From contig NZ_JBHIWR010000005.1 of the NCBI RefSeq assembly GCF_041987405.1, positions 150,258-214,257 on the forward strand: a stretch of DNA of 64,000 bases, given 5' to 3'. Below the pieces are notes generated by a model. That model saw only the letters and a program-made list of their open reading frames with translations. It did no database searches and was not told the DNA's origin. Of the stretch, positions 4,639 to 15,806 are shown one piece after another. This DNA is from Pseudooceanicola sp. GTDB taxonomy: Bacteria; Pseudomonadota; Alphaproteobacteria; Rhodobacterales; Rhodobacteraceae. The translations under genes and the position numbers were made by a program. Positions within the stretch are counted from its first letter, which is position 1. Each line of letters begins with the position of its first letter.

Positions 4639-5955
4639 ATGACCCAGCCCAAGAAGCTTTTCATCAAGACCTACGGCTGCCAGATGAACGTCTATGACAG
4701 CGAACGCATGGCCGAGGCCCTGGGCGGCAATGGCTATGTCGAGGTCGGCTCGCCGGACGAGGCGGACATGATCCTGCTGAATACCTGTCACATCCGGGAA
4801 AAGGCAGCGGAGAAGGTCTATTCGGAACTGGGCCGGTTCAAGGGGCTGAAGTCGGAAAAGCCGGACTTGAAGATCGGCGTGGCGGGCTGTGTCGCGCAGG
4901 CCGAGGGCGAGGAGATCATGCGCCGCCAGCCCATGGTCGATCTGGTTGTCGGCCCGCAGAGCTACCATCGCCTGCCGGAGATGGAGGCCAAGGCGGGCGC
5001 GGAGAAGGTGATCGACACCGACTTCCCCGAGGAAGACAAGTTCGAGAAGTTGAAAAGCCGCCCCAAGGCAAAACGCGGGCCGACCGCGTTCCTGACCGTT
5101 CAGGAGGGCTGCGACAAGTTCTGCGCCTTCTGCGTCGTGCCCTATACCCGGGGGGCGGAGGTATCGCGCCCGGTGGAGCGGGTGCTGGCCGAGGCACGCG
5201 ATCTGGTGGACCGCGGGGTGCGGGAGATCACCTTGCTGGGCCAGAACGTCAACGCCTACCACGGCGCAGGGCCGGATGGCGGGGACTGGTCGCTGGCCCG
5301 GCTGATCCGGGAGTTGGCGGAGATCGACGATCTGGCGCGCATCCGGTTCACCACGTCGCATCCCAACGACATGGACGACGATCTGATCGCGGCGCATGGC
5401 GATTGCGAGAAACTGATGCCCTATCTGCATCTGCCGGTGCAGTCGGGGTCGGACAAGATCCTCAAGCGGATGAACCGCAGCCATGATCGCGACAGTTACC
5501 TGCGCCTGATCGAGCGGATCCGAACGGCGCGGCCCGATATCCTGATCTCCGGCGACTTCATCGTCGGCTTCCCGGAGGAGACGGACGAGGATTTCCGCGA
5601 CACGATGCGGCTGATCGAAGAGGTGAATTACGGTCAGGCCTTTTCGTTCAAGTATTCGACCCGACCCGGCACGCCCGCGGCGGAACGGTCGCAGGTGCCG
5701 GAGGATGTGAAATCCGACCGGCTGCAGGAGCTGCAGGCACTGATCACCCGCCAGCAACGCGCGGTGCAGGATGCCATGGTCGGCCGCGAGGTCGGCGTGC
5801 TGATCGAACGGCCGGGGCGGATGCCGGGGCAGATGGTCGGCAAGTCCGACCATCTGCATGCGGTGCATATCCAGTGCGATCTGGCCCCCGGGTCGCTGGC
5901 GCGCGTCCGGATCGTCGAAAGCGGGCCGAATTCCCTGGGCGGCGAGCTGCTCTGA
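4639..5955 (+). CDS. miaB: tRNA-2-methylthio-N6-dimethylallyladenosine synthase
   Basis: [24 protein letters not shown], radical [12 protein letters not shown]-terminal TRAM region. Confidence 0.97.
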
Positions 5956-6205
5956 CGCGAGCTTGACCCGGGGTGATTCCCGGCACCGCTGCAGGGTGCA
6001 CCCGTAGCCGACGACAGCGCCAACAACCGGGGCACGACCGCTATAATTCGTGCTGCCCGTCGCCGGAATAGCTATATTTCGGTATCATTTCCTCGGATTG
6101 AATCTTCACAAGTGCCCGCAAACCGCTAAAGTGTGGGCAGATAAAATGCTTGGGTCTCACCTGCTGCCAATCCGGGGGACCCTTGGGGGATGCAGAGGGA
6201 AATAA

Positions 6206-6778
6206 GTGGTGAAGCTGGATATCAGATCAGCCGGAACGATGCTGAAGGGGCTGTTTGCAGCCGCCCTCTGCGTCGTGACGGTTTCCGCCGGTCCGGCCCT
6301 GGCACAGGGCAAGGGCTACAACGAAAGATACGTCCCGACGATCTGGGTCGATCCAGATGGCTGCGAACACTGGGCCATGGATGACGGCTTGGAAGGCTAC
6401 ATGAGCCCGCATCTGACGCGTCAGGGCCTGCCGGTCTGCCACCGCAAGAACGTTTGCGGCGTGATGCAGACGGACCAGTTCTTCGCGACGGACAAATACT
6501 ACATCAGCCCCAGCAACCAGAAGCGTCTGGCGGAGTTCTTCCAGAAATCCACCGCGACGGCCTTCATTATCGCGGGTCACACCGACAGCCGCGCCTCGGA
6601 CGAATACAACATGCGCCTGTCCTACAACCGCGCCAATTCCGTGGCCAAGGTCGGCGCCGCTGTCGGGGCCAATATCGTGGACGTGCGCGGATATGGCGAA
6701 CGGATGCCGGTCGCGGCGAACAATTCCGCTGCGGGCATGGCCCAGAACCGCCGCGTCGAAATCATCTGCATTCAATGA
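6206..6778 (+). CDS. Secreted OmpA-like (peptidoglycan-binding) domain protein with N-terminal 2-Cys module
   Basis: Signal peptide (AAALCVVTVSAGPALA); GHTDSRASDEYNMRLSYNRANSV and GYGE...QNRRVEI OmpA_C motifs; GAGGG RBS before GTG 6206. Confidence 0.88.
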   Translation: MVKLDIRSAGTMLKGLFAAALCVVTVSAGPALAQGKGYNERYVPTIWVDPDGCEHWAMDDGLEGYMSPHLTRQGLPVCHRKNVCGVMQTDQFFATDKYYISPSNQKRLAEFFQKSTATAFIIAGHTDSRASDEYNMRLSYNRANSVAKVGAAVGANIVDVRGYGERMPVAANNSAAGMAQNRRVEIICIQ

Positions 6779-6792
6779 GCGGAAGGACTGTC

Positions 6793-7119
6793 ATGACACT
6801 CAAGAAGCTCATTCTCGGATGCGCCATGATCGGGGGCGTTGCCGCCTGTGGCCACCCCAGCCCGACACCGGATTTCAAGGGTGTGGACCGTGGCTTCGGC
6901 CGCAAGCACCTGAGCCAGCTGCAGGCGGGGATCTGGATCGACCCGAATGGCTGTGACCACTGGATCATCGACGATGGCGCCGAAGGCTACCTGTCCACGC
7001 GCCTCGATCCCTACGGCAAACCGGTCTGTTCCGGCACCGCGCCGCCGAACACGGCGACGGGCGGGTTCAAACGCGGCGGGCAAATCGGTGACCCGCGCAC
7101 CGCGACAGTCTCGGGATAA
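6793..7119 (+). CDS. Small lipoprotein sharing the 2-Cys module of the upstream OmpA protein
   Basis: GGAAGGA RBS, ATG 6793; lipobox-like VAAC; IWIDPNGCDHWIIDDGAEGYLSTRLDPYGKPVC. Confidence 0.8.
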   Translation: MTLKKLILGCAMIGGVAACGHPSPTPDFKGVDRGFGRKHLSQLQAGIWIDPNGCDHWIIDDGAEGYLSTRLDPYGKPVCSGTAPPNTATGGFKRGGQIGDPRTATVSG

Positions 7120-7164
7120 GCGGCGGACCGGGATGCACATCGGACCCGCATATCAAGCAAAGAG

Positions 7165-7194
7165 ATGCCGCAGGTTCACGCCTGCGGCATTTTT
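7165..7194 (+). terminator. Intrinsic terminator after the OmpA/lipoprotein pair
   Basis: ATGCCGCAGG-TTCACG-CCTGCGGCAT followed by TTTT. Confidence 0.8.
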
Positions 7195-7252
7195 GATTTC
7201 CGGCCCGGCCCGGACTGCCCTACCCTATGGATACCAACATTAGGAGATCTGC

Positions 7253-8275
7253 TTGGCTGCCACATTGCTGCCCCCCCGCGAGACCAACGCCGACACCCTG
7301 GCCGAGGTCGCTGTCGAATTCCCCGACAACTTCCTGCTGATCGAACTGTGTGGTGAGTTCGATCGCAACCTGGCCGAGATCGAACAGAAGCTGTCCGTTC
7401 AAATCCTGCGCCGTGGAAACCACCTGGTGGCCATGGGCGAAAAACCCGCGGCGGAGGAAGCGGTGCAGGTCCTGCGCAAGCTGTATGCGCGGCTGGAGGC
7501 CGGACGGCCCGTCGGCCCCGGCGATATCGACCGCGAGCTGCGGATGCCCGATGCAAACCTTGACCGGGGCAAGAGCCGGGACGGCAAGCAGATCGAGATG
7601 TTCAAGGGCGGCCCGGTGGAGATCAAGACCCGCAAGAAGGTGGTGGAGCCGCGGACGGAGGCGCAAAAGGCCTATGTCCAGAACCTGTTCCAGCACGAGA
7701 TGGCGTTTGGCATCGGGCCTGCGGGCACCGGCAAGACCTATCTCGCCGTGGCGGTTGGCGTGTCGATGTTCATCGACGGGCTGGTAGACAAGATCATCCT
7801 GTCGCGTCCGGCCGTGGAGGCGGGCGAGAAGCTGGGTTATCTGCCCGGCGACATGAAGGACAAGGTCGATCCCTACATGCAGCCGCTCTATGACGCGCTG
7901 AACGATTTCCTTCCCGGCAAGCAACTCGCCAAGATGATGGAGGAAAAGGTGATCGAGATCGCGCCGCTGGCCTTCATGCGGGGACGGACGCTGTCAAACG
8001 CCTTTGTCGTGCTGGACGAGGCGCAGAACGCCACGACCATGCAGATGAAGATGTTCCTGACCCGCCTGGGCGAAGGGTCGCGCATGGTGATCACCGGCGA
8101 CCGCAGCCAGGTGGACCTGCCGCGCGGGATGCCGTCGGGGCTGAAGGATGCGGAGGGTTTGCTGAAGGGGATCGACAAGATCAGCTTTAACTACTTTACC
8201 GCCAAGGACGTGGTGCGGCATCCGCTGGTCGCCAGGATCATCGAGGCCTACGAGGCGGCAGAGGGTAAGAGTTGA
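7253..8275 (+). CDS. phoH: PhoH family ATPase (YbeZ-like)
   Basis: GIGPAGTGKTYLA Walker A, LSRPAVEAGEKLGYLPG, LDEAQN, VITGDRSQVDLP; AGGAG RBS before TTG. Confidence 0.95.
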   Translation: MAATLLPPRETNADTLAEVAVEFPDNFLLIELCGEFDRNLAEIEQKLSVQILRRGNHLVAMGEKPAAEEAVQVLRKLYARLEAGRPVGPGDIDRELRMPDANLDRGKSRDGKQIEMFKGGPVEIKTRKKVVEPRTEAQKAYVQNLFQHEMAFGIGPAGTGKTYLAVAVGVSMFIDGLVDKIILSRPAVEAGEKLGYLPGDMKDKVDPYMQPLYDALNDFLPGKQLAKMMEEKVIEIAPLAFMRGRTLSNAFVVLDEAQNATTMQMKMFLTRLGEGSRMVITGDRSQVDLPRGMPSGLKDAEGLLKGIDKISFNYFTAKDVVRHPLVARIIEAYEAAEGKS

Positions 8276-8301: not shown

Positions 8302-8718
8302 TCAGGCCTCGGACGCCTCGTCCTTTTTCGCCGGTCTGAACGCGCCTGTGTCCAGATCGTCGACGTTCAGCGGTTTCATGTACCAGGCGGTGCCGCAGGG
8401 CAGCCATGGGACTGTATCCCGATCGAAGGTGGACAGGACGATGATCGGCAACTGCGCCACCTTCAGTCCGCTGGCCAGATGTTCGCAGACCGCTTCCGGC
8501 TTGTGAATGTCGAGAATCACGCCTGAAAATCGCCCATGACCGGCCTGGATCGCCGAGGACACCCCCGAATAGCCAGTGAATTGCGTCGAATATCCCTGCG
8601 CATTCAAGCTCATCTCGAGATCAAGTGACAGCAGCGGGTCGTCGCTGACGATCAGCACATCCTTCGCCTCAGAGGCGAGCGCGCCGTTTGATTTCAATTG
8701 TCCGATGATTCTTTCCAT
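8302..8718 (-). CDS. Single-domain response regulator (receiver domain)
   Basis: VLIVSDD acidic pocket, GVILD phospho-acceptor, IIVLST, YMKP. Confidence 0.75.
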   Translation of the reverse strand: MERIIGQLKSNGALASEAKDVLIVSDDPLLSLDLEMSLNAQGYSTQFTGYSGVSSAIQAGHGRFSGVILDIHKPEAVCEHLASGLKVAQLPIIVLSTFDRDTVPWLPCGTAWYMKPLNVDDLDTGAFRPAKKDEASEA

Positions 8719-8908
8719 GCACCGGACATAGGCGCGTTAACTAGTTTTTTCAATGTTTTTCAGATACTTAGTTTGTAATTTTGCACCCTATACTAGAGAT
8801 TGTCACTTTACTTATTTTGCTCATAATACATATGGGTCAACTGACGGTTATTGCAAAAAGAAACGCCAAACACAGATAGAACGCTACAGATCGAGACGGA
8901 TCATCGAG

Positions 8909-9142
8909 ATGAAACAGGACCCATCAAAAAGGCTTGAACGGCTCCAGATCATGTTGACGGATGATGAACTGCGCGCGGTGGATGACTGGCGGTTCAAGTT
9001 GCATATGCCCAGTCGGTCCGCAGCGGTCCGCGAACTACTGCGGCGCGGTCTTGCGGCCGAAGGGTATTACGGGCAGGCGGAAAGCGGCTCCCCCTCCTCG
9101 AAGTTCGGCGTTCTGGATGATCCTGACAAGAACGTGCCCTGA
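8909..9142 (+). CDS. Small ribbon-helix-helix-like protein
   Basis: RLQIMLTDDELRAVDDWRFKLHMPSRSAAVRELLRRGL: beta strand plus two helices, CopG-like SRSxAVRELL pattern. Confidence 0.7.
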   Translation: MKQDPSKRLERLQIMLTDDELRAVDDWRFKLHMPSRSAAVRELLRRGLAAEGYYGQAESGSPSSKFGVLDDPDKNVP

Positions 9143-9163
9143 CGAAGGGGCGCCACCCCTCCA

Positions 9164-10078
9164 TCACAGCCTGCGCGCCGCCTGTTCGAGTTTGGCCAGC
9201 GTCTCGTAGCCCTTCTCCAGCGCCCCGAATTGCATGGCCTCCGCAGCTGCCATGTCGGCCAGGGTCATGCGCATGGTCACGCGGGTGCCCCCCGCCTCCT
9301 CCGTGAACTCCACCACCACGTCCGCATGATGCCGCATGTCGTCGAAGCCGCTCAGTCGGTAGGTCAGGCGGCGCTCCTTCTCCATCTCGCCGAAGTCGTG
9401 CAGGTTGGGATGGCGTTGCCCCTCGCCGATCATGGTGAACCGCCAGTGGCCGCCAGGACGCAGGTCGATGCTCTCGGTCTCGCAGTGATACCCCTCCGGC
9501 CCCCACCATTTCGGCAGCAATTCGGGATCGGTCCAGGCCTTCCAGGCGAGGGCCACAGGCGCGTCTATCCGGCGGGTCAGCAGGAGTTCACGGTCAGGCG
9601 CAGGGCCGGCCATGGCGGAGGCGGCGACGCCGAGCTGATCGGCCACGGTGCCCCAGCCCTCGAAGAAGCCCATCTTCTCGTGATTGTCCCGCGCCTCGGT
9701 CGAGGCATGACGGACCAGCACGTCATAGGTCGTGCCCCCGCCTTCGGCGTCCGAGAATGTCAGGATTGCAGTCATGAAGGGGCTGGGATTCATGATCCAG
9801 CCGGGGGAATAGGCATCGGTGAAGACCAGGCGGCGGGTTGGGTCGGCCTCCAGAATGACGCCGGGGCTGTCCATGATGTTGCCGTCCACATTCATCTTCG
9901 TGCGGAAGATGCCGCCGGGGCGCAGGTCGATCTCGGCCTCTTCGACCGTGTGGGGGGCGGGCATGAACCATTTGGGCAGCAGCGCCGGGTCGGTCCAGCA
10001 GGCCCAGACTAGATCGCGCGGGGCGTTGAGGGTCCGGGTGAAGGCGAGGTCGGTGTCGGGGTTCGGTGACAGGGTCAT
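9164..10078 (-). CDS. Tandem SRPBCC (AHSA1-like) domain protein
   Basis: Two repeats: TRTLNAPRDLVWACWTDPALLPKWF..IDLRPGG and TRRIDAPVALAWKAWTDPELLPKWW..IDLRPGG; ATGA overlap with the ArsR stop. Confidence 0.88.
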   Translation of the reverse strand: MTLSPNPDTDLAFTRTLNAPRDLVWACWTDPALLPKWFMPAPHTVEEAEIDLRPGGIFRTKMNVDGNIMDSPGVILEADPTRRLVFTDAYSPGWIMNPSPFMTAILTFSDAEGGGTTYDVLVRHASTEARDNHEKMGFFEGWGTVADQLGVAASAMAGPAPDRELLLTRRIDAPVALAWKAWTDPELLPKWWGPEGYHCETESIDLRPGGHWRFTMIGEGQRHPNLHDFGEMEKERRLTYRLSGFDDMRHHADVVVEFTEEAGGTRVTMRMTLADMAAAEAMQFGALEKGYETLAKLEQAARRL

Positions 10079-10416
10079 TCGGTCTGATCCTTGGCAAGTT
10101 GGGTAACAAAGGCGTCGAAACGATCGAGGCGGGCCTCCCACAGGTCACGCTGCGCGGTCAGCCAGTCCTTTGCCGGGGCAAAGGCACCGGGCACCAGGGC
10201 GCAGGTGCGGACACGCCCATCCTTTTCGGAGGAGATCATCCCCGCCGCCTCCAGTTTCTTCAGGTGGCCCATGAAGGAGGGCATGGCCATGTCGAAGGGC
10301 GCCGCAAGCTCGGAGACCGAGGCGGGCCCACGTGAGAGCCGTTCAAGGATCGCGCGCCGGGTCGGATCGCCGAGGGCGGTGAAAACGGTATCGAGGGAGA
10401 GATCATACTTAGCCAT
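10075..10416 (-). CDS. ArsR/SmtB family HTH regulator (SRPBCC-associated)
   Basis: VFTALGDPTRRAILERL, SVSELAAPFDMAMPSFMGHLKKLEAAGMI, KDGRVRTC. Confidence 0.9.
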   Translation of the reverse strand: MAKYDLSLDTVFTALGDPTRRAILERLSRGPASVSELAAPFDMAMPSFMGHLKKLEAAGMISSEKDGRVRTCALVPGAFAPAKDWLTAQRDLWEARLDRFDAFVTQLAKDQTE

Positions 10417-10479
10417 GACCCTAACTATTCACGGATGTGGAGTCGGCGCAAGTGAAAACTTAGGCCTATCCCTAAGTTT
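10407..10479. promoter_or_regulatory. Two putative ArsR operators, ACTTAG-N8-CTAA(G/C)T
   Basis: Perfect inverted repeat AAACTTAGG-N6-CCTAAGTTT at 10456-10479; second copy ACTTAG-N8-CTAACT at 10407-10426 spans the ArsR start codon. Confidence 0.65.
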
Positions 10480-10522
10480 CTGTCATCTTGCCGGGCGGGC
10501 GCGCAGGCATTAGCTGGACTGG

Positions 10523-11017
10523 ATGAGCGTGGACATCATCTATGAGGACGACCGCTGGCAGTCAGCGGGGCTGGAGCCGCTTGCCGAGGCCGCCACTGCG
10601 GCAGCGCTGTCCCATCTTGGGCTGGATGCGGAGGAATGGGAAGTGTCCCTTCTGGCCTGCGACGACGCGCGGATTGCCACGCTGAACGCGGAGTTTCGCG
10701 GCAAACCGGTGCCGACCAATGTGCTGTCCTGGCCGTCCGAGGAACGGGGGGCGGAGACACCCGGCGCGCGGCCCGATCTGCCCGAGCCTGGCTTCGATCC
10801 GGAGCTGGGGGATATCGCCATCGCCTATGACACCTGCGCGCGTGAGGCCGCGGAAGGCGGCAAACCGCTGGCGGACTATGTGACGCATCTGATCGTTCAC
10901 GCAGTGTTGCATCTTCTCGGCTATGATCACGAAAATGACCCGGATGCGGCCCTGATGGAGGGATTGGAGACGGAAATACTTGGCAAAATGGGTCTGCCGG
11001 ACCCATATGGGGCATGA
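10523..11017 (+). CDS. ybeY: rRNA maturation endoribonuclease YbeY
   Basis: LNAEFRGKPVPTNVLSWP, LGDIAI, HLIVHAVLHLLGYDH zinc motif. Confidence 0.96.
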   Translation: MSVDIIYEDDRWQSAGLEPLAEAATAAALSHLGLDAEEWEVSLLACDDARIATLNAEFRGKPVPTNVLSWPSEERGAETPGARPDLPEPGFDPELGDIAIAYDTCAREAAEGGKPLADYVTHLIVHAVLHLLGYDHENDPDAALMEGLETEILGKMGLPDPYGA

Positions 11018-13606: not shown

Positions 13607-13657
13607 CTGCTGCTCCAACGGCTTCCTGACGGAGCGGTCTAACACCTATCGGAGCAC
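13607..13657 (+). ncRNA. SAM-SAH riboswitch
   Basis: CTGCTCCAACGGCTTCCTGACGGAGC...ACCTATCGGAGCA contains the CAACGGCUUCCUGRCG core of this Rhodobacterales class and overlaps the metK RBS. Confidence 0.85.
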
Positions 13658-13662
13658 TTTTC

Positions 13663-14844
13663 ATGACCCGCAAGAACTATATCTTCACCTCGGAATCCGT
13701 TTCCGAGGGGCATCCGGACAAGGTTTGTGACCGGATTTCCGATGCCGTCCTCGATGCGCTTCTGTCGGAAGAGCCGCAGGCGCGCGTCGCCTGTGAAACC
13801 TTTGCCACCACCAACCGCGTCGTGATCGGTGGCGAAGTGGGCCTCGCGGATCAGGAAAAGCTGCAGGATTACATGGGCCGGATCGACCAGATCGCCCGCG
13901 CCTGCATCAAGGACATCGGCTACGAGCAGGACAAGTTCCACCACGAGACGGTGGAGGTGACCAACCTGCTGCACGAGCAATCCGCCCATATCGCCCAGGG
14001 CGTCGATGCCGGCGACAACAAGGACGAAGGCGCCGGCGATCAGGGCATCATGTTCGGCTATGCCACGACCGAGACCGATGATCTGATGCCCGCGCCGATC
14101 CAGTTCGCGCACCGGATCCTCCGCCGTCTGGCCGAGGTGCGCAAGGATGGAACCGAACCGACCCTGGGGCCGGATGCGAAATCCCAGGTCTCCTTGCGGT
14201 ATGAAGACGGTCGCCCGGTGGAGGTCACGCAGCTGGTTCTTTCGACCCAGCACAATGACGCGAACCAGACCTCGGAGGATATCCGCGAAATCGTCATGCC
14301 CTACATCCGCGAGGTCATCCCGACCGAGTGGCTGACCGCCAATACCGAATACTGGATCAACCCGACCGGCAAGTTCGTCATCGGCGGTCCCGATGGCGAC
14401 GCGGGTCTGACCGGGCGCAAGATCATCGTGGATACCTACGGCGGCGCGGCGCCGCACGGTGGCGGCGCGTTTTCGGGCAAGGATCCGACCAAGGTCGACC
14501 GCTCTGCCGCCTATGCGGCGCGCTATCTGGCGAAGAACGTCGTTGCGGCGGGCATGGCCGAGAAGTGCACCATCCAGCTGTCCTATGCGATCGGGATTTC
14601 CCGGCCGCTGTCGATCTACGCCGACACCTACGGCACCGGCCAGGTCGACGAGGCCGAGATTGAACGCGCCGTGGCGCAGGTAATGGACCTGACCCCCCGC
14701 GGCATTCGCGAGCATCTGGAGCTGAACAAACCGATCTACCAGCGCACCGCGGCCTACGGGCATTTCGGCCGCAAGCCGGAGGCAGACGGCGGGTTCTCCT
14801 GGGAGAAGACGGATCTGGTCGAGGCGCTGAAAAAAGCGGTCTGA
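13663..14844 (+). CDS. metK: S-adenosylmethionine synthetase
   Basis: [35 protein letters not shown]. Confidence 0.98.
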
Positions 14845-14870
14845 GCGCGACCGGACAGTGAAACGGATGT

Positions 14871-15016
14871 GCCCCGGCCTTGCGCCGGGGCCTTCTTGTT
14901 TGCGACCCGATACTGCCGCGGCCAGGTCCAGGCACCACCCACGCCCCGGCCTCGTGCCGGGGCCGTTCAGTATCATGACGTCAGCACGAGCGAGGCCCCG
15001 GCGCGGGGGCAGGGGC
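14871..15016. repeat. Cluster of REP-like hairpins GCCCCGGC-N5-GCCGGGGC; first copy may act as the metK terminator
   Basis: 14871-14891 (loop CTTGC, followed by CTTCTTGTTT), 14943-14963 (loop CTCGT), degenerate third copy ~14994-15016. Confidence 0.75.
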
Positions 15017-15056
15017 ATGTTTCTCACTCCGCCGGAGAGGCAGCACCACGGCTGGC

Positions 15057-15806
15057 TTATCGAGCCGTGTACCCGCCATCGAGTGGATAAACCCCGCCGG
15101 TCGCAAACCCCGCATCCTCGGACAGGAGAAAGGCCACAAGGGCCGCGACTTCCTGCCTGCGCGCCATCCGTCCGAGGGGGTGCATGGCGGCCAGGGCAGC
15201 GTGCTCTTCTTCGGGCATGGCCTTCATTGCGGGTGTATCCACGAAGCCGGGCGCGACGGCGTTCACCCGGATACCTCTCTTGGCGCAGTCCAACGCAGCT
15301 TCGCGGGTCAGCCCGATCACCCCGTGTTTCGCGGCCGTGTAATCCGCCATGCCTCCAAAGCCGACCAACCCGTTTGCCGCGGCCATGTTGACGATCGCCC
15401 CGCCCCCGCTCGCCTCGATGGCGGGTATCTCGTGCTTGAGGCAGAGGAAACAGCCGGTCAGGTTTGTCGCAATCACCGCACTCCATGTATCGGCTGATTT
15501 ATCTGTCAGCGGGATCGGGCCTTCCGCAGGCCCGCCCGCATTGTTGACCGCAAGATGCAGGCCGCCAAAGCGGTCGCAGACCGCCTTGACCATCCACATC
15601 ACGGCATCTTCGTCAGTCACATCACAGGCCATGCCGAAAGACCGCGCCCCTGTCGGGTCCAACCGGTCTGCGGTGGTCCGGGCGTCGTCTTCGTCCCTGC
15701 TGCACAGGGCCACGTTGGCGCCGAGGTTGAACAGATGCGCCGCGATCGCTTCGCCATTTCCGCGCGTACCGCCGGTGACCAGCGCCGTTTTCCCTGTCAG
15801 CTTCAT
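15057..15806 (-). CDS. Short-chain dehydrogenase/reductase
   Basis: TGGTRGNG cofactor motif, NNAG, YTAAK catalytic motif, NAVAPG. Confidence 0.9.
   Translation of the reverse strand: MKLTGKTALVTGGTRGNGEAIAAHLFNLGANVALCSRDEDDARTTADRLDPTGARSFGMACDVTDEDAVMWMVKAVCDRFGGLHLAVNNAGGPAEGPIPLTDKSADTWSAVIATNLTGCFLCLKHEIPAIEASGGGAIVNMAAANGLVGFGGMADYTAAKHGVIGLTREAALDCAKRGIRVNAVAPGFVDTPAMKAMPEEEHAALAAMHPLGRMARRQEVAALVAFLLSEDAGFATGGVYPLDGGYTAR

Follow-up and report, generated by a model that had tools for sequence, protein, structure and literature searches.

Between the MiaB-type and PhoH-type genes of a Pseudooceanicola sp. (Alphaproteobacteria; Rhodobacteraceae) lie two small genes whose products, a secreted protein with an OmpA-like domain (gene 1) and a small lipoprotein (gene 2), share a segment of 33 residues with two cysteines. 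Both are encoded in a 64,000-nucleotide stretch of contig NZ_JBHIWR010000005.1, which was analysed as a whole and is referred to here as the window; coordinates are window positions unless another contig is named. The question raised by this locus is why two adjacent genes for envelope proteins should carry the same module. Comparison of the pair with its relatives revealed an envelope unit, strongly conserved and so far wholly uncharacterised, that about 60% of Rhodobacteraceae genera possess and that is built on a domain without a curated family. We give an even chance to the proposal that the two proteins are a membrane-to-wall tether like Pal, split in two and joined through docking of the homologous modules. 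The features of the two genes are as follows.

6206-6778, plus strand: gene 1, encoding the OmpA-domain protein (190 amino acids), from the open reading frame (ORF) and its translation
6206-6304, plus strand: signal peptide of gene 1, type I and not a lipobox, residues 1-33, with A-L-A before Q34, read from the translation
6341-6439, plus strand: two-cysteine module of gene 1 (OmpA-type copy), residues 46-78, with Cys53 and Cys78
6479-6751, plus strand: OmpA-like domain of gene 1 (PF00691), residues 92-182
6793-7119, plus strand: gene 2, encoding the small lipoprotein (108 amino acids; mature form about 90), from the ORF and its translation
6838-6849, plus strand: lipobox V-A-A-C of gene 2, with Cys19 invariant in 66 orthologues
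6931-7029, plus strand: two-cysteine module of gene 2 (lipoprotein-type copy), residues 47-79, with Cys54 and Cys79
7030-7095, plus strand: conserved C-terminal tail of the lipoprotein, SGTAPPNTATGGFKRGGQIGDP

The translations, together with a BLASTP comparison of residues 46-78 of gene 1 with residues 47-79 of gene 2, bear out the common module that a sequence-only reading of this DNA had noticed in the OmpA protein and the 108-residue lipoprotein. The two copies align without gaps, with 20/33 residues identical and 25/33 positive (E = 7e-15 for this single pairwise comparison). The signature is W-x-D-x2-G-C-x-H-W ... D-G-x-E-G-Y ... G-x-P-x-C with 24 (or 25) residues between the cysteines, and nearly every position is conserved. 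Both window copies fit the module signatures of 80 related loci and score about 81-82 bits against the profile of alignment A1, which itself includes both. A 33-column module profile found 242 representative proteins at E ≤ 1e-3 among 1.84 billion. Each module, whether it is single or in tandem (two or three), has exactly two cysteines at a fixed spacing, a pattern most simply read as one disulfide within each module. The sequence-only reading had proposed a disulfide bond between the two proteins; nothing indicates an intermolecular disulfide.

The distribution of the module was determined in two samples, a family sample of 401 Rhodobacteraceae genomes (one per genus) and a class-wide sample of 401 alphaproteobacterial genomes, 4 of them Rhodobacteraceae. 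The module is present in 248/401 genomes of the family sample. Nearly all of these have exactly two copies about 580-640 base pairs (bp) apart; five have one copy, three of them being assemblies of at least 200 contigs, and one has three. Class-wide, 4/401 genomes matched, all Rhodobacteraceae, and 0 of the approximately 397 others. The named relatives of both proteins belong to Rhodobacteraceae-type organisms or to unclassified Pseudomonadota metagenome-assembled genomes, and the closest relatives of the pair are from Pseudooceanicola (84-91% identity). The order miaB, OmpA gene, lipoprotein gene, phoH is found in 80/80 named loci, with both modules visible in 79 (the remaining locus is cut by a contig end), and the OmpA gene precedes the lipoprotein gene in 160/160 scorable pairs. 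In at least 8/16 family genomes that do not have the pair, miaB and phoH are immediate neighbours with 120-275 bp between them. The pair has therefore either been inserted into the conserved miaB-phoH-ybeY-corC-lnt block or been cleanly lost from it. A deviating arrangement was seen in one genome (G702, locus L152), where a short ORF lacking an OmpA domain holds the OmpA-type module, at a distance of 319 bp from the lipoprotein-type copy, and a third, partial copy is on another of its contigs (C1:246330-246410).

A module shared by neighbours could be a relic of tandem duplication or of gene conversion, in which case the products would not cooperate. The two copies are adjacent paralogues, and in a divergent clade concerted evolution affects the C-terminal third of the module, with 51% identity there between paralogues of the same genome and 44% between cross-clade OmpA orthologues. 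Set against this, purifying selection on both copies is strong across about 250 genera (mean identities among main-clade orthologues of 86% and 91%), the pairing has been kept after relocation and after reversal of gene order, and independent loss of one partner is rare, occurring in no more than the five genomes with a single copy. The window copies have 67/99 bases in common and use the same codon at 12 of the 20 identical residues, which is no sign of recent conversion. We consider it extremely improbable that the shared module is such a relic.

The distant relatives of the pair differ in domain organisation. Besides the signal peptide-module-OmpA and lipobox-module proteins, the architectures include lipobox-module-OmpA (P0316 and P0350), lipobox-module-module-OmpA (P0247), two or three modules with an OmpA domain (P0248, P0250 and P0245), module-OmpA-OmpA (P0329), and two or three modules without OmpA (P0243, P0244, P0246 and P0249). 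On the five variant contigs an adjacent small lipoprotein bearing exactly one module was found in every case (5/5). At locus L118 a lipobox-module-OmpA protein is followed by a module lipoprotein, the two lying between M20 peptidase and NUDIX genes; at L121 the order is reversed and the module lipoprotein overlaps a three-module OmpA protein by 4 bp; at L182 and L184 a two-module OmpA protein and a module-OmpA-OmpA protein are each followed by a single-module lipoprotein; and at L183 the lipoprotein still adjoins a three-module protein that is without OmpA. Variants of the pair thus occur also in neighbourhoods unrelated to miaB/phoH (M20 peptidase and NUDIX; DUF3179 and LysE). The first module of P0247 is of the lipoprotein type by its flank and signature, and the second is of the OmpA type by its signature; the protein can be read as the two window genes fused into one (a Rosetta-stone protein). 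The variants are the strongest evidence that the partnership of a module-bearing secreted protein with a module lipoprotein would be the core of the system. The co-conservation and functional coupling anticipated for the pair are upheld by its strict co-occurrence, its adjacency in unrelated contexts and the fused form.

The domain content of gene 1 is that of a secreted protein with a wall-binding domain. The order is signal peptide, module, a short cysteine-containing linker and the OmpA-like domain. PF00691 was matched above its gathering cut-off (46.1 bits against 27.2; 47.8 bits in the whole-genome scan), the Pfam scan of the gene 1 product returned nothing besides the OmpA family above threshold, and nearly all of 481 module-bearing OmpA relatives have PF00691. 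In an alignment of 62 orthologues (A3), G124-H-T-D127 and R142-A143 are invariant and residues 42-66 are near-invariant. The G-H-T-D/R-A motif aligns with HTDS...RRA of the OprF C-domain (5U1H; E = 8e-14), and Asp127 and Arg142 are presumably the equivalents of the diaminopimelate-contacting pair in solved OmpA-like domains. The domain is predicted to bind peptidoglycan non-covalently; non-covalent linkage of membrane and wall through an OmpA-like domain is well known. AlphaFold2, run with family alignments, gave a predicted local distance difference test (pLDDT) score of about 80-95 for this domain (residues 83-189).

At the signal peptide of gene 1, a hydrophobic core followed by A-x-A-Q is conserved (A3), which points to cleavage after A-L-A. 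Its sole cysteine, Cys22, is preceded by A-A-L and is not conserved. The mature product, consisting of module and PF00691 once the signal peptide is removed, has no anchor of its own, and after processing it should be a soluble, unanchored periplasmic wall-binder. Cys84 (6455-6457) and Cys188 (6767-6769) flank the OmpA-like domain and are at least 90% conserved (A3). Their equivalents are present or absent together across the architectures and are jointly absent from the lipobox-fused types, and this suggests a second disulfide that would clamp the OmpA domain at its first and last strands.

The gene 2 product is probably lipidated at Cys19, and a lipobox is found on 160/160 of the partner ORFs examined. 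Pfam and NCBIfam scans of the gene 2 product matched no family, and of its 1611 relatives none of those listed has a Pfam family. The mature lipoprotein (about 90 residues) is conserved nearly throughout, with the flanks D-R-G-x-D-x-K-H-L-S-Q-L before the module and S-G-T-A-P-P-N-T-A-T-G-x-F-K-x-G...D-P after it. Within the tail, S80, G81, A83, P85, G90 and D100 are invariant in 66 orthologues (alignment A2); related tails read PP..G...D in the divergent clade and G.(F/Y)K.G in the metagenomic partners. The C-terminus is ...TATVSG in the window and DPI, DPL or DPV in most orthologues. The mature product should be an anchor that carries little beyond the module and its short conserved flanks, and it is most likely located in the outer membrane.

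Taken together, these components allow the split tether to be described as follows. The gene 1 product would be a soluble periplasmic protein with a 33-residue beta-rich module, closed by its own disulfide, followed by a wall-binding OmpA-like domain. The gene 2 product would be a lipid-anchored protein, most likely of the outer membrane, with the same module and short conserved flanks. The two homologous modules would pair with each other, and the lipoprotein would supply the membrane anchor that the OmpA-like protein is without. The architecture proposed from the sequence, a lipid anchor with a module in one protein and a module with a peptidoglycan-binding domain in the other, does fit an envelope tether. 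The genome has ten OmpA-like domain matches, nine of them above the Pfam cut-off, and a canonical Pal is encoded elsewhere (C1:1011731-1012039; 137.3 bits against a cut-off of 125.35); the pair would therefore be accessory to Pal.

The structure of the module and the co-evolution of its two copies bear on whether docking takes place. Modelling and sequence features suggest a beta-rich module in which PDG, DDGxEG and xxG turns connect three or four short strands, and positions 2, 10 and 12 change together inside the lipoprotein module, which fits a hairpin around the PDG turn. Two clades can be told apart by module length, with 105 pairs of 33/33 residues and 46 pairs of 34/34 (one odd pair has 34/35). 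No pair mixes 33- with 34-residue modules, and the additional residue is in the same last loop of both. In a tree-based analysis of co-change the top pair was formed by position 23 of both modules, with 13 joint changes where 3.3 were expected (z = 5.3). Module position 17 (the x of DDGxEGY) was considered as a size-compensating contact and rejected: an OmpA tryptophan stood opposite a lipoprotein leucine or valine in 0/25 cases, and the position was dropped as a clade signal, being absent from the top co-changing pairs after tree mapping.

Several observations weigh against a docked tether. The matched module lengths are what an interface would produce, and may equally stem from a single event or from gene conversion. 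AlphaFold2 left the module unfolded in both proteins, with pLDDT below 50. The module-by-module co-change has a mean z of 0.39 (controls about 0), a weak excess, and control column classes reach z = 7.4, above the module-by-module maximum of 5.3. The number of modules in the secreted partner (1, 2 or 3) is unmatched by the lipoprotein, which always has one. In addition, the residue after the lipidated cysteine is variable (G here, D/E in many relatives, and also V, Q, T, A and S), and outer-membrane sorting is therefore not readable from the sequence.

The main alternative, possible if rather unlikely in our estimate, is a common ligand. Instead of binding each other, both modules would recognise one further envelope component, for example an outer-membrane protein, lipopolysaccharide, a glycan or some feature of peptidoglycan, which the two proteins would read in parallel or in competition. 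Tandem arrays of two or three modules, with or without OmpA (P0243-P0250), are typical of ligand-binding repeats that gain avidity, and unmatched module numbers, conservation of almost all module positions and the absence of robust covariation between the partners would all be expected of a common ligand, as would the probable distant copy in a SPOR-domain protein described below. Such a ligand leaves unexplained the single-module lipoprotein beside every module-bearing secreted protein examined, in five contexts, and likewise the fusion P0247, and no conserved candidate for a third partner was found in the neighbourhoods examined.

A regulatory relationship, in which the lipoprotein controls the OmpA-like protein or the reverse, for example by sequestering and releasing it under envelope stress, would resemble YfiR with the OmpA-like lipoprotein YfiB, or the lipoprotein activators of wall enzymes. 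The best sequence matches for the OmpA domain include YfiB structures, the conserved flanks of the lipoprotein could carry a function other than that of the module, and the unit has a conserved promoter region of its own. However, the pair has no signalling or enzymatic domain and none is conserved beside it, the YfiB score of 75.7 bits is far under the cut-off of 128, and a permanent fusion such as P0247 fits a structural link better than a switch. We judge regulation of this kind to be quite improbable.

A whole-genome scan for the cysteine spacing of the module revealed a further candidate outside the window, a SPOR-domain protein of 456 amino acids from the first Met (C6:113705-115117, minus strand; locus L187) with a SPOR domain scoring 38.8 bits. 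Behind its signal peptide is the segment QYVDSRGC-x24-C, which has the same 24-residue spacing as the module and is conserved in 107/151 family genomes. An hhalign comparison of this segment with the module gave a probability of 64.6% (E = 6e-5), and it is plausibly, if not provably, a distant third copy. Over 150 genera, in counts uncorrected for phylogeny, 92 have both the pair and the SPOR segment, 4 the pair alone, 14 the SPOR segment alone and 40 neither. With this copy included, the genome would have three module carriers, two of them fused to non-covalent peptidoglycan-binding domains and the third a lipoprotein. A bolder idea is that the lipoprotein could be an outer-membrane socket for which the two-cysteine modules are plugs on a set of wall-binding proteins, with the OmpA-like partner and, more distantly, the SPOR protein as candidates. 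Such a plug-and-socket system might let the Rhodobacteraceae tether and constrict the outer membrane, with the SPOR protein targeting septal peptidoglycan. We regard the socket, together with this role, as unlikely. Small secreted ORFs of about 100-130 amino acids with a SPOR-type segment, e.g. YVDNQGCLYERANVGGWTLWVQRLDKSTVGC, are present at two loci from other genera (L218 and L221); free-standing SPOR-type versions of the module therefore exist in some genomes, with none in the window genome.

The statement of the sequence-only reading that the module belongs to no named domain stands as far as curated families at threshold are concerned, and needs to be qualified, as DUF6440 (PF20037) lies just under its cut-off on divergent relatives. 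On the module, all Pfam and NCBIfam models stayed below threshold. For the two-module relatives P0244 and P0246, DUF6440 reaches 26.0 and 25.4 bits, respectively (cut-off 26.5), and it matches 12/38 family modules at E ≤ 10, the best at 0.007. On the window proteins PF20037 gave no match at E ≤ 1, and on the window copies in the whole-genome scan none at E ≤ 10. PHROGs 11767 and 8801 have weak matches to the module family, phrog_11767 spanning nearly the whole window lipoprotein (E = 0.004). These three are the only curated profiles that touch the module, and all are of unknown function. The module may be a cysteine-bearing, distant branch of DUF6440-like small proteins, a relationship that would supply no function. 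A PDB sequence search with the module profile returned noise only, from PDG-turn repeats of designed propellers, and tblastn of a two-module relative against phage records gave no match. Metal binding by acidic residues of the module was considered and dropped, as D15 and D4 are replaced in whole clades. In the literature consulted, no description was found of a split into two proteins sharing a dedicated, uncurated mini-domain, or of a module pair restricted to one bacterial family.

Attachment of the outer membrane to the wall has been well worked out in enterobacteria (Lpp, Pal and OmpA) and only partly in the Alphaproteobacteria. The pair resembles Pal in combining a lipid anchor with an OmpA-like domain that binds peptidoglycan non-covalently, and the Asp/Arg pair is present here too; the relatives P0316, P0350 and P0247 even have lipobox and OmpA in one chain. 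It differs from Pal in that anchor and wall-binding domain are on two polypeptides, each with the additional 33-residue module. Gene 1 scores 59.8-61.4 bits against the Pal model (TIGR02802; cut-off 125.35), its product has no lipobox, the signal peptide ending in A-L-A before Q, and the window pair lies outside any tol-pal cluster. Sub-threshold NCBIfam matches of gene 1 were to the models of OmpA-like lipoproteins, namely YiaD, YfiB, PA1041 and Pal. The first three are the best NCBIfam and PDB matches for its OmpA domain and score far under their cut-offs (91 against 175, 76 against 128 and 76 against 250 bits, respectively); unlike these proteins gene 1 has no lipobox, and the two-cysteine module replaces their N-terminal parts.

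The closest functional analogue of gene 1, likened to it by architecture only, is RmpM. RmpM lacks a membrane anchor; once its signal peptide is cleaved off, it consists of a small N-terminal part that grips outer-membrane partners and a C-terminal OmpA-like domain, a layout that gene 1 resembles. RmpM/PIII (class 4 protein) of Neisseria is described as associating non-covalently with peptidoglycan and interacting with porin complexes (PMC4226279). Its partners are porin complexes and not a co-encoded lipoprotein with a homologous module. Also small is the outer-membrane lipoprotein DalA (RSP_1200) of Rhodobacter sphaeroides, which occurs widely in the Rhodobacterales, functions in envelope division and binds peptidoglycan non-covalently (PMC10470522). 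DalA was considered as the identity of the gene 2 lipoprotein and rejected on size, distribution and gene context: it is about 18 kDa, has homologues in Actinobacteria and Cyanobacteria, and its gene is beside that of an L,D-transpeptidase and not miaB/phoH. An 'OmpA family protein', RSP_1033, co-precipitated with DalA (PMC10470522). RSP_1033 could not be mapped to gene 1, as neither its sequence nor its neighbourhood was found in the literature. The very small size of gene 2 recalls Lpp, an abundant kind of lipoprotein by which the outer membrane is tied to the wall. Lpp forms helical trimers and is attached covalently at its C-terminal Lys, whereas gene 2 has no C-terminal Lys/Arg and is Cys- and Gly-rich with predicted beta strands. 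To our knowledge, the Rhodobacteraceae have no Braun's lipoprotein.

Roseobacters and related bacteria count among the most abundant heterotrophs of the sea and shed ecologically relevant vesicles. If the modules dock, the pair would be a Pal-type tether divided between an anchor and a wall-binder, with the homologous modules holding the two together. Such a tether would lend itself to easy genetic tests in tractable relatives and could yield a compact heterodimerising tag for periplasmic use. Without docking, the module would still be a new ligand-binding domain of the envelope that is worth defining.

The expression signals of the pair are as follows.

6105-6132, plus strand: promoter-like site TTCACA, 16 nucleotides, TAAAGT (9/12 against the sigma-70 consensus)
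6194-6200, plus strand: ribosome-binding-site-like AGAGGGA, 5 nucleotides before the GTG start of gene 1, read from the sequence
6781-6787, plus strand: ribosome-binding-site-like GGAAGGA, 5 nucleotides before the ATG start of gene 2, read from the sequence
7165-7199, plus strand: putative terminator, a 10-bp stem and 6-nucleotide loop followed by TTTTGATTT, from a hairpin search and the T-run read from the sequence

The spacing and ribosome-binding sites described from the sequence were found again: the genes are separated by 14 nucleotides (6779-6792), and AGAGGGA and GGAAGGA precede genes 1 and 2, respectively. The GTG start of gene 1 is matched by GTG in 15/15 upstream regions compared from different genera, and an AAAGGA- or AGAGGA-like tract is at the equivalent place in related loci. 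TTCACA-16-TAAAGT is the sole sigma-70-like site within the 250-nucleotide spacer upstream of gene 1. It overlaps the most conserved columns of the cross-genus upstream alignment, in whose 15 regions the CTTCAC core and the TAA of the -10 element show little or no variation, and it is the putative promoter of the pair. About 15 nucleotides ahead of the CTTCAC core, a semi-conserved ACAATAT.TGGTG is found in many genera, and the conserved region as a whole (6085-6132) could be a regulator site and not merely a -35 element. EcfG-type and CtrA-type control were rejected, the respective boxes being present in 7/160 and 0/160 loci. A terminator had been placed at 7165-7194; the GC-rich hairpin with its 10-bp stem is at 7165-7190, and the end position 7194 falls inside the plus-strand T-run (TTTTGATTT, 7191-7199) that follows directly. 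Hairpin and T-run can together serve as an intrinsic terminator. Judged by these signals, a conserved promoter-like site and a terminator of their own, the two genes probably form an independent bicistronic operon. An Rfam scan of the unit and its leader matched no family.

The flanking genes are those recognised at the outset, a MiaB-type ORF upstream (4639-5955) and a PhoH-type ORF downstream (7253-8275); in related loci the orthologues of these ORFs carry the UPF0004, Radical_SAM and TRAM, and the PhoH, Pfam families. In E. coli, miaB adjoins the phoH-like ybeZ. Further downstream, a 615-residue ORF directly after lnt (13639-15486, minus strand) has no Pfam family at E ≤ 1e-3. The phoH-ybeY-corC-lnt block is interrupted a second time at 8302-10500, where three ORFs lie between phoH (ending at 8275) and ybeY (10523-11017). 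Two of them, of 138 (minus strand) and 129 (plus strand) amino acids, have no Pfam family, and the third encodes a double AHSA1/SRPBCC protein of 325 amino acids on the minus strand. In the metagenomic relative L184, phoH, ybeY, corC and lnt are contiguous.

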